Below, piece after piece: positions 23,936 to 24,510 of a stretch of 24,510 nucleotides of DNA (position 1 is its first letter; every line of letters begins with the position of its first letter). Location of the stretch: the IMG/VR virus record IMGVR_UViG_2579778952_000010. One strand, written 5' to 3'. This DNA is from a virus. Taxonomy: Duplodnaviria; Heunggongvirae; Uroviricota; Caudoviricetes. Under the pieces are notes generated by a model that saw only the letters and a program-made list of their open reading frames with translations, did no database searches and was not told the DNA's origin. The position numbers and the translations under genes were made by a program.

Positions 23936-24088
23936 TTATTCAGATTTACGCAGTAAAGGCCGGAGCACGACCAGCGCCATCGCCACCAGCACACCATCTG
24001 CCAGCACCGACATCAGTCGTCCGGTGAAATCAACCACCACTACCAGAAACAACAGGATGACAGCCAGCACAAGGCGCGCACTTTTCAC
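23936..24088 (-). CDS. Small hydrophobic membrane protein (about 50 aa), translationally coupled to the TerB-like gene
   Basis: GTG start overlapping the TerB-like stop (GTGA); GGAG 8 nt upstream. Sequence VKSARLVLAVILLFLVVVVDFTGRLMSVLADGVLVAMALVVLRPLLRKSE. Below the ORF-track cut-off; start uncertain. Confidence 0.35.
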   Translation of the reverse strand: MKSARLVLAVILLFLVVVVDFTGRLMSVLADGVLVAMALVVLRPLLRKSE

Positions 24089-24510
24089 AGGTACTGCTCC
24101 AGCGGCAACTGCAGCGCCTGCGCAATTTTCTTCAGTTGCGCTTCTTCTTCCTGACCGATACCGTCCTGGTCAGCGATATCCAGACACAGGCACAGCACAT
24201 TAACTGCATCATCAGTACCGGCAACATCAGCCAGCTGACGAAGAGCTTCGGCATTGGCAGAACGCGGCGACGCTTCATAACGGGCGCGGATATTTGCACT
24301 CATTTGTGCAATCTCACCGGAGAACGGCGCAAAGACAGGAAGTGCTGCAATGGTTTTTTCCAGTACCGCGATTTCTTTCGCGTCACAGGTGCCGTCAGCG
24401 TATGCAATGGAGTACGCGCCCCAGACGGTCGCCTCCACTGCGTCACGGTTCTCCATCTTCTTCACTTCGGTAATGGCCTTGCGGGTTTTCTTTTTGAAAA
24501 TACCAAACAT
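24085..24510 (-). CDS. TerB-like (tellurite-resistance TerB family) domain protein
   Basis: 141-aa ORF whose architecture and motifs (..AYADGTCDAKE.. and ..DIADQDGIGQEEEAQLKKIAQAL..) parallel the two halves of TerB. The start codon is at the last 3 bases of the window, so its upstream region is not visible. Confidence 0.65.
   Translation of the reverse strand: MFGIFKKKTRKAITEVKKMENRDAVEATVWGAYSIAYADGTCDAKEIAVLEKTIAALPVFAPFSGEIAQMSANIRARYEASPRSANAEALRQLADVAGTDDAVNVLCLCLDIADQDGIGQEEEAQLKKIAQALQLPLEQYL

Follow-up and report, generated by a model that had tools for sequence, protein, structure and literature searches.

One end of a 24,510-nucleotide viral stretch (IMG/VR record IMGVR_UViG_2579778952_000010, Caudoviricetes), referred to below as the window, carries two overlapping genes that we identify with very high confidence as an accessory copy of the tciA/tciB cassette of phage P1. 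The tciA-like gene encodes a single-domain TerB protein and the tciB-like gene a 50-residue hydrophobic protein of the DUF3927 family, and both genes are real and under purifying selection. Sequence comparison indicates that the pair occupies the slot, between a Q antiterminator gene and the lysis genes, that holds the Shiga toxin genes in phage phiP27. Expression during the lytic cycle, together with formation of a membrane complex by the two products, is rather probable. The best explanation as a whole, in which an exchangeable cassette of the P1 type would supply a membrane-bound TerB complex with a protective role in lytic growth, we give slightly less than an even chance. The pair is already catalogued and not new, as both PHROGs and RefSeq name the two proteins (in RefSeq, “tellurite resistance TerB family protein” and “DUF3927 family protein”). 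The cassette itself is ordinary and already annotated. No molecular function is known for TerB, a widespread domain, and the pair, consisting of one TerB domain and a 50-residue membrane partner, may be its simplest setting. The two genes lie as follows:

24085–24510, minus strand: tciA-like gene, 141 amino acids (stop codon included in the coordinates); predicted stand-alone cytoplasmic TerB-domain protein

23936–24088, minus strand: tciB-like gene, 50 amino acids, GTG start; predicted two-helix inner-membrane protein, DUF3927

24085–24088, minus strand: GTGA start/stop overlap of tciB on tciA, read directly from the sequence

The TciA-like protein passes the gathering threshold of the Pfam TerB model (PF05099; 32.4 bits against a cut-off of 24.4, E 1.3e-7), and the TerB assignment made by an earlier, sequence-only reading of this DNA thus holds under a profile search. 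It also matches phrog_632 (“tellurite resistance”, E 2.8e-64) and, by tblastn against phage genomes, is 85.8% identical to P1 TciA across all 141 residues. The family is therefore the one first named, TerB, in the form of P1 tciA/tciB. A profile of seven divergent phage homologs matches the solved TerB structure 2JXU (E 1.4e-13, residues 14–137 against 20–144). Residues D39, G40, E46, D116, and E122 are invariant in the alignment of these seven lineages, and paired acidic motifs (ADG...E) are found in both halves of the protein. An AlphaFold2 (AF2) model gives a six-helix bundle with a predicted local distance difference test (pLDDT) score of 87 and a predicted template modeling score of 0.82; the N-terminal 15 residues are disordered, and the net charge over the first 20 residues is +5. 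When this model was compared with the Protein Data Bank by Foldseek, the best match was weak (2H5N, E 0.018, template modeling score ~0.5) and 2JXU was not retrieved; we take 2H5N to be classed as TerB-like. Among viral models, Foldseek matched four unnamed proteins of ~141–158 amino acids, which are probably TerB-like. The NCBIfam scan of both proteins gave nothing useful, the DjlA model reaching only 14 bits for TciA against a cut-off of 162.

The TciB-like protein matches Pfam DUF3927 (PF13064; 54.2 bits against a cut-off of 25, E 1.4e-14) and phrog_1470 (“TciB-like”, E 3.3e-23), and is 49% identical to P1 TciB. Its grand average of hydropathy is 1.5, with two hydrophobic stretches joined by DFTGR, and the conserved core reads LLFLVV.VDFTG..MS.LADG.LV. 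Both ends carry positive charges, which suggests a cytoplasmic location for each terminus, and the protein is probably a hairpin of two membrane helices. The median ratio of nonsynonymous to synonymous substitution rates (dN/dS) against relatives in viral contigs, with the window copy as reference, is 0.047 for tciA (61 pairs) and 0.30 for tciB (37 pairs).

The two genes travel as a unit. In all 80 viral contigs with close TciA relatives, tciB directly follows tciA. The stop/start overlap could be scored in 76 of the 80 loci, as GTGA in 67 and TAATG in 9; in the other four it went unscored on account of a scripted start choice 109 nucleotides (nt) further upstream. The same succession is seen in P1, in the lambdoid phage JLK-2012, in the N4-like phage FSL SP-058, in the Erwinia jumbo phage Caitlin, and in Pseudomonas phage ZY21. 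In E. coli annotation, a DUF3927 gene lacking an intact TerB neighbor occurs only beside truncated TerB genes. One P1-like contig (P0060) contains a natural in-frame TciA–TciB fusion, which looks like the result of a 1-base insertion where the two genes meet; the fusion would fit a cytoplasmic N-terminus of TciB and offers anecdotal support only. The likeness to P1 tciABC extends beyond sequence identity to gene order, overlapping stop and start codons, and adjacent tRNA genes. The loci differ in the form of the overlap (TAATG in P1, GTGA here), in setting (between the ban promoters and the ban helicase gene in P1, in a Q-dependent late operon before the holins here), and in the third gene, since tciB is followed here by an 85-nt spacer with two hairpins and no tciC. 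A tblastn search with P1 TciC over related loci returned nothing at E <= 1e-5, a result of little power given the 35-residue query.

Every gene at this end of the window is encoded on the minus strand. Downstream of the pair, in the direction of transcription, lie the hairpins and the lysis genes:

23889–23937, minus strand: terminator-like hairpin 1, a 9-bp core GGCAUC..GAUGCC in an extended stem, then a U-run; starts at the tciB stop codon

23864–23886, minus strand: terminator-like hairpin 2, GGGUC-N6-GGCCC then U7, from RNA folding

23455–23850, minus strand: first holin of the lysis cassette (context, outside the pair), Pfam Phage_holin_8 E 3.4e-23, phrog_198 holin

23190–23468, minus strand: holin with three transmembrane segments, from profile scans of the downstream genes

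22843–23193, minus strand: M15 endolysin, from the same scans

The spacer between tciB and the holin ATG at 23850 measures 85 nt. Folding of the RNA from 23945 to 23845 gives two hairpins, each followed by a U-run, with a minimum free energy of -32.1 kcal/mol (z = -2.9), and none of 200 shuffled sequences folds as well. A terminator scan independently recovers one of the two, the equivalent of hairpin 2 (positions 11987–11972 of the E. coli FDAARGOS_1077 prophage stretch). The sequence of hairpin 1 is retained in phiP27, in phage pPE4, and also in E. coli genomes with the holin alone. The sequence-only reading had described a TerB-like gene and a GTGA-overlapping gene for a 50-residue hydrophobic protein just ahead of hairpins and a holin; the open reading frames (ORFs), the overlap, and the fold all bear this description out.

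Since the ATG of tciA forms the last three bases of the window, the ribosome-binding site and all further upstream sequence lie outside it, and the upstream context was taken from a prophage of E. coli FDAARGOS_1077, in which the pair is 100% identical. The order there is Q antiterminator, Ser/Thr kinase, PP2C phosphatase, hypothetical gene, DNA methyltransferase, tRNA-Ile, tRNA-Arg, tRNA-Arg, TerB, DUF3927, holin, holin, endolysin. The presence of Q upstream, which the earlier reading had proposed to look for, is thus established for a prophage with an identical pair. Its suggestion that the pair sits where lambdoid phages carry cargo, between the late promoter region and the lysis genes, agrees with this order and with the presence of stx2e at the same place in phiP27. 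In the FDAARGOS_1077 stretch the kinase and the phosphatase lie at 14703–16207, and the methyltransferase that follows is type II-like. The kinase matches the PADLOC defense-kinase models mad6 (E 1e-39), PD-T4-6, and Stk2. The entire interval from Q to the holins looks like a cargo island.

The lysis region of the window is ~90% identical to that of the Stx2e phage phiP27, whose order is Q, further genes, methylase, tRNA-Ile, tRNA-Arg, stxA2e, stxB2e, holin, holin, endolysin. Directly downstream of stxB2e (~6161–6274), phiP27 retains both hairpins and the last ~95 nt of a tciB-like gene, which align to the window with a one-base gap. In pairwise BLAST, the segment replaced in phiP27 comprises the leader that precedes tciA, tciA itself, and the first 58 nt of tciB. 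The remnant beside stxB2e thus shows that this whole segment gave way to the stx2e cassette. On this comparison the pair occupies the Shiga toxin slot and predates stx2e there in the phiP27 lineage. The toxin genes are unrelated to tciA and tciB and share with them the slot and its bounds, namely the same post-tRNA and pre-holin hairpins. The displacement of the pair by stx2e shows how a toxin slot turns over. An annotated hypothetical ORF of phiP27, L27, overlaps the tciB remnant on the opposite strand.

Survey of bacterial genomes points in the same direction. The pair is carried by 180 of 5,426 complete E. coli genomes. A query consisting of the holin and the pair matched 361 E. coli genomes, and the two parts were contiguous in 143. 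Among 60 evenly spaced rows sampled from the matches, 31 contained the holin part only, with homology ending at ~23928–23947, just past the hairpins. E. coli W has a slot with no annotated gene, while strain 503829 has an unrelated 86-residue gene in the slot on the same scaffold of Q, kinase, phosphatase, and methylase. In strain N96 the pair precedes a class II holin/lysozyme cassette. The flanks are 90–98% identical among genomes with the pair, with other cargo, and with none, and the 80 viral contigs show the pair together with no fewer than three types of Q, several sets of tRNAs, and two lysis cassettes. Variable presence between homologous flanks and association with different lysis cassettes mark the cassette as exchangeable cargo. 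This agrees with the earlier suggestion of an accessory module distinct from the lysis machinery, and the pair is not a conserved part of the lysis module of this lineage. Of the features associated with a moron, the cassette shows presence or absence between homologous neighbors and, in the predicted hairpins, a terminator of its own; a promoter of its own and a base composition unlike the flanks were not found. Atypical composition was rejected as a mark of the cassette, GC content being 0.53–0.56 across it and 0.49–0.56 in the immediate flanking genes.

A near relative of the window has been recorded from another host. In pPE4 (PP818812.1, “Actinobacillus phage vB_Apl-pPE4”) the region from tciAB through the lysis genes is 91% identical at the DNA level and TciA is 97% identical. 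The recorded host is Actinobacillus pleuropneumoniae; it looks as if either this attribution is doubtful or the transfer was very recent.

The pair is also found in a range of other phages. JLK-2012 has a 41%-identical pair, in the order Q, tRNAs, tciA, tciB, a nanS-like esterase gene, S, R, Rz. In P1, tciABC lies between the C1-operator-controlled promoters P1ban/P2ban and ban, and in a P2/186-like contig the pair follows cox and cII within the early operon. The virulent N4-like phage FSL SP-058 and Pseudomonas phage ZY21 also carry the pair, and in the Erwinia jumbo phage Caitlin it is located in a tRNA region. In P1 and in the P2/186-like, N4-like, and jumbo phages, the pair is away from the lysis genes. 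Phage terB/tciA genes have been described in P1-like phage-plasmids, N4-like phages, Pseudomonas phage PMBT3, and Salmonella phages, and a 2026 preprint lists TerB among the conserved neighbors of prophage small RNA genes. Given that at least six unrelated phage types carry the pair and that it is dispensable in the laboratory, its role should be easy to test genetically.

The pair adjoins tRNA genes in five unrelated lineages (P1, JLK-2012, Caitlin, ZY21, and the FDAARGOS_1077 prophage), and 34 of 78 viral contigs have a tRNA whose end lies upstream of tciA at a distance below 600 nt. This adjacency may stem from a common region tolerant of insertions, from recombination at tRNA genes, or from a functional connection.

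Several observations bear on when the pair is expressed. A search of the FDAARGOS_1077 stretch (11500–13200) found no sigma-70-like promoter between the post-tRNA hairpin and the tciA ATG, and terminator-like hairpins bracket the cassette on both sides. With no promoter detected and hairpins on either side, the pair is most likely read only within the Q-antiterminated late transcript. All temperate contexts found are operons that are off in the lysogen (Q-dependent late, the C1-controlled ban region of P1, and P2-like early). Carriage by virulent phages and in repressed lytic operons argues for a role in lytic growth rather than in the lysogen. Purified P1 virion preparations contain TciA peptides (PMC9024508), and tciA, tciB, and tciC were non-essential in a P1 CRISPR interference screen (PMC10695390). 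We conclude, by inference from these contexts, that the pair acts in lytic growth and is dispensable under laboratory conditions.

The leader displaced in phiP27 is conserved and accompanies tciA whatever sequence lies further upstream. It spans ~125 nt directly upstream of tciA, just beyond window position 24510 (FDAARGOS_1077 stretch 12612–12745, minus strand). Folding gives a long, imperfect hairpin whose invariant CCUUU is base-paired with AAAGG, the Shine-Dalgarno sequence. In the leader alignment 97.4% of cells are paired, as against 35–53% in slid-partner controls; compensatory changes occur at four pairs, a number that 7 of 500 shuffles also attain, and the single-sequence fold has z = -3.4. 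A candidate small ORF in the leader was rejected by eye, as its 23-codon frame is hit by stop codons in several variants. Rfam gave no match to the leader; at permissive E-values the FDAARGOS_1077 stretch from the holins to Q yielded only the three upstream tRNAs, and at gathering thresholds nothing was found in the window. The hairpin suggests translational control of tciA, with moderate support from what are closely related sequences. Alternatively, it may be an RNase III substrate.

How the products might act can be proposed from these observations. TciA would be soluble, with one TerB domain and a basic peptide at its N-terminus, and translation of tciB would be coupled to that of tciA, so that both proteins are made together. 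TciB would then tether TciA to the inner membrane on its cytoplasmic side, an arrangement amounting to a two-polypeptide version of a membrane-anchored TerB domain. The proposed tether draws on the likeness to DjlA and to a Vibrio phage locus in which a TerB gene stands beside TerC; the Millman et al. preprint also cites a report of membrane association for TerB. DjlA, a membrane-anchored DnaK co-chaperone of E. coli, likewise combines an inner-membrane anchor with a cytoplasmic TerB-like domain; here, anchor and TerB domain are separate polypeptides and the J domain is absent. The proposed membrane-anchored TerB complex is placed in lytic growth by the temperate contexts, all of them lytic operons, and by the absence of a detectable promoter. 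The proteins would be made just before the holins, on the Q-antiterminated late transcript, from a cassette that is dispensable for plaque formation. The benefit might be that the membrane of the infected cell is kept intact and energized against superinfecting phage or colicins until the scheduled firing of the holin. Phage-inhibition and pore-forming-colicin-resistance phenotypes are attributed to TerB-containing ter operons in papers that cite them. We regard this protective role, drawn by analogy, as a tentative best guess that is distinctly less probable than lytic expression and membrane association.

The Vibrio phage in question, vB_VpaP-MS02, which we take to be virulent, encodes TerD, TerD, a hypothetical protein, TerC, and a TciA-like TerB in a row (positions 1–2926), with no TciB. 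Its ter set is fuller than those of the enterobacterial phages. It is intermediate between the present pair and the terZABCDE(F) operons of IncHI2 plasmids and Klebsiella, the TerB of which (2JXU) resembles TciA in its single-domain size, a near full-length profile match, and both ADG...E motifs. The window pair differs from those operons in having no TerC, TerD, TerE, or TerZ, and in having a 50-residue DUF3927 protein as membrane partner.

A number of points weigh against this proposal. The most conserved part of TciB is the turn that would face the periplasm, together with an aspartate inside the second helix, and this may indicate a function beyond simple anchoring. In an AF2 model of the P0060 fusion, the TciB part has pLDDT values of only 50–77 and no interface is given. 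The promoter search was a simple consensus scan, which a weak or non-sigma-70 lysogen promoter could escape. Published descriptions of phage terB/tciA genes call their role unknown, and the protective role is modeled on the phenotypes of whole ter operons, whose TerC, TerD, TerE, and TerZ are absent here.

The sequence-only reading had also linked TerB domains to phage defense, and the pair could be a defense or conversion module transcribed from the repressed prophage, protecting the lysogen against other phages or colicins in the manner of Bunzi, Shango, or ter operons. TerB domains do occur in the validated systems Bunzi and Shango (Millman et al. preprint), where they are thought to act at the membrane. 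Insulation by hairpins on both sides would suit cargo that must not be read through into the holin, and the same Q-to-holin interval contains the methyltransferase and the kinase that resembles PD-T4-6, mad6, and Stk2. However, neither protein matches a PADLOC model, Bunzi and Shango included, at E <= 0.01, and the pair lacks the partner helicase, ATPase, or other effector gene. The promoter scan found none, and the pair is phage-encoded, occurring in strictly virulent N4-like and jumbo phages and in the lytic operons of P1 and P2-like phages, so that the defense link finds no support and a lysogen-expressed module is unlikely. The same distribution, across many unrelated virulent and temperate phages and in early or late lytic operons, would suit a counter-defense role, in which TciA/TciB mimics or titrates TerB-based membrane sensors of the host (the ter operon, Shango, Bunzi) and so hides the infection. 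The low dN/dS of TciA (0.047) is as expected for continued fit to a host target, and the pair is dispensable on the laboratory K-12 host. The case is purely circumstantial, however, as no association of the pair with hosts having TerB-based systems was found, nor any similarity to a known anti-defense protein, for which no dedicated search was made, and we consider this role slightly less likely than lysogen defense. We attach a similarly small probability to a broader idea in which TciA, TciB, and the leader that would hide the ribosome-binding site form a widespread lytic-growth device for manipulating the state of the host inner membrane. Such a device might blind TerB-based immunity (again the ter operon, Shango, or Bunzi) or stop early holin triggering by outside insults. 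If true, it would represent a new functional class common to virulent and temperate phages, and a stand-alone TerB domain would for the first time have a function assigned to it.

The position of the pair raises the question of lysis timing, since a holin is directly downstream in most lambdoid contexts (of the Phage_holin_8 type in 59 of the 80 viral contigs), the pair and the holins probably have a late transcript in common, and TciB is a small membrane protein. An antiholin-like regulator that binds the adjacent holins and tunes their triggering, as part of the lysis module, would fit these facts. It fits poorly with the two unrelated cassettes that follow the pair (Phage_holin_8 plus the three-segment holin, and class II holin plus lysozyme), with the 1.8-kb gene between the pair and holin S in JLK-2012, with the absence of the pair from about half of the sampled genomes with the holin cassette, and with its location away from lysis genes in P1, P2-like, N4-like, and jumbo phages. 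Pfam and PHROGs searches place neither protein in a holin or antiholin family, and we judge such a regulator improbable. The P1 gene name, which refers to “inhibition of cell division,” suggests a role in host takeover, in which a mildly toxic TciB would act with TciA to halt division or alter envelope signaling. Over-produced DjlA, with its membrane helix, TerB-like domain, and J domain, has comparable effects, and the placement of the pair in lytic operons is compatible with such a role. Activation of Rcs by DjlA nevertheless requires the J domain, absent here, and growth arrest is in our view no more probable than lysis timing. A genuine tellurite resistance determinant, as the database name and the homology to ter-operon TerB would have it, is very improbable. 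Neither the window nor its flanks contain TerC, TerD, TerE, or TerZ, and authors describing phage terB genes have judged resistance unlikely, or not assessable without the remaining operon. Lytic-phase action of a membrane-held TerB protein stays our preferred reading.

Two further features concern the integrity of the elements compared. In the FDAARGOS_1077 stretch (~3850–5330, corresponding to ~9800–16000 of the window) the capsid gene nearly adjoins the DNA-circularization gene, and the intervening ORFs of the window are apparently missing. We take these, from their size and position, to be the connector, sheath, tube, and tape-measure genes. The structural module of the FDAARGOS_1077 prophage looks deleted, and that of the window looks complete. 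The M15 endolysin of the window has a 1-base deletion in a G-run at ~22879 relative to three relatives, and its conserved C-terminus is replaced (...ELGSLSNGAGTGKR in the window, ...ELGIAIEWGGDWKTLKDGPHFQLKR in the relatives). The lost DGPH motif may include a metal-binding histidine. The frameshift reflects either a lysis-defective prophage or a homopolymer sequencing error.

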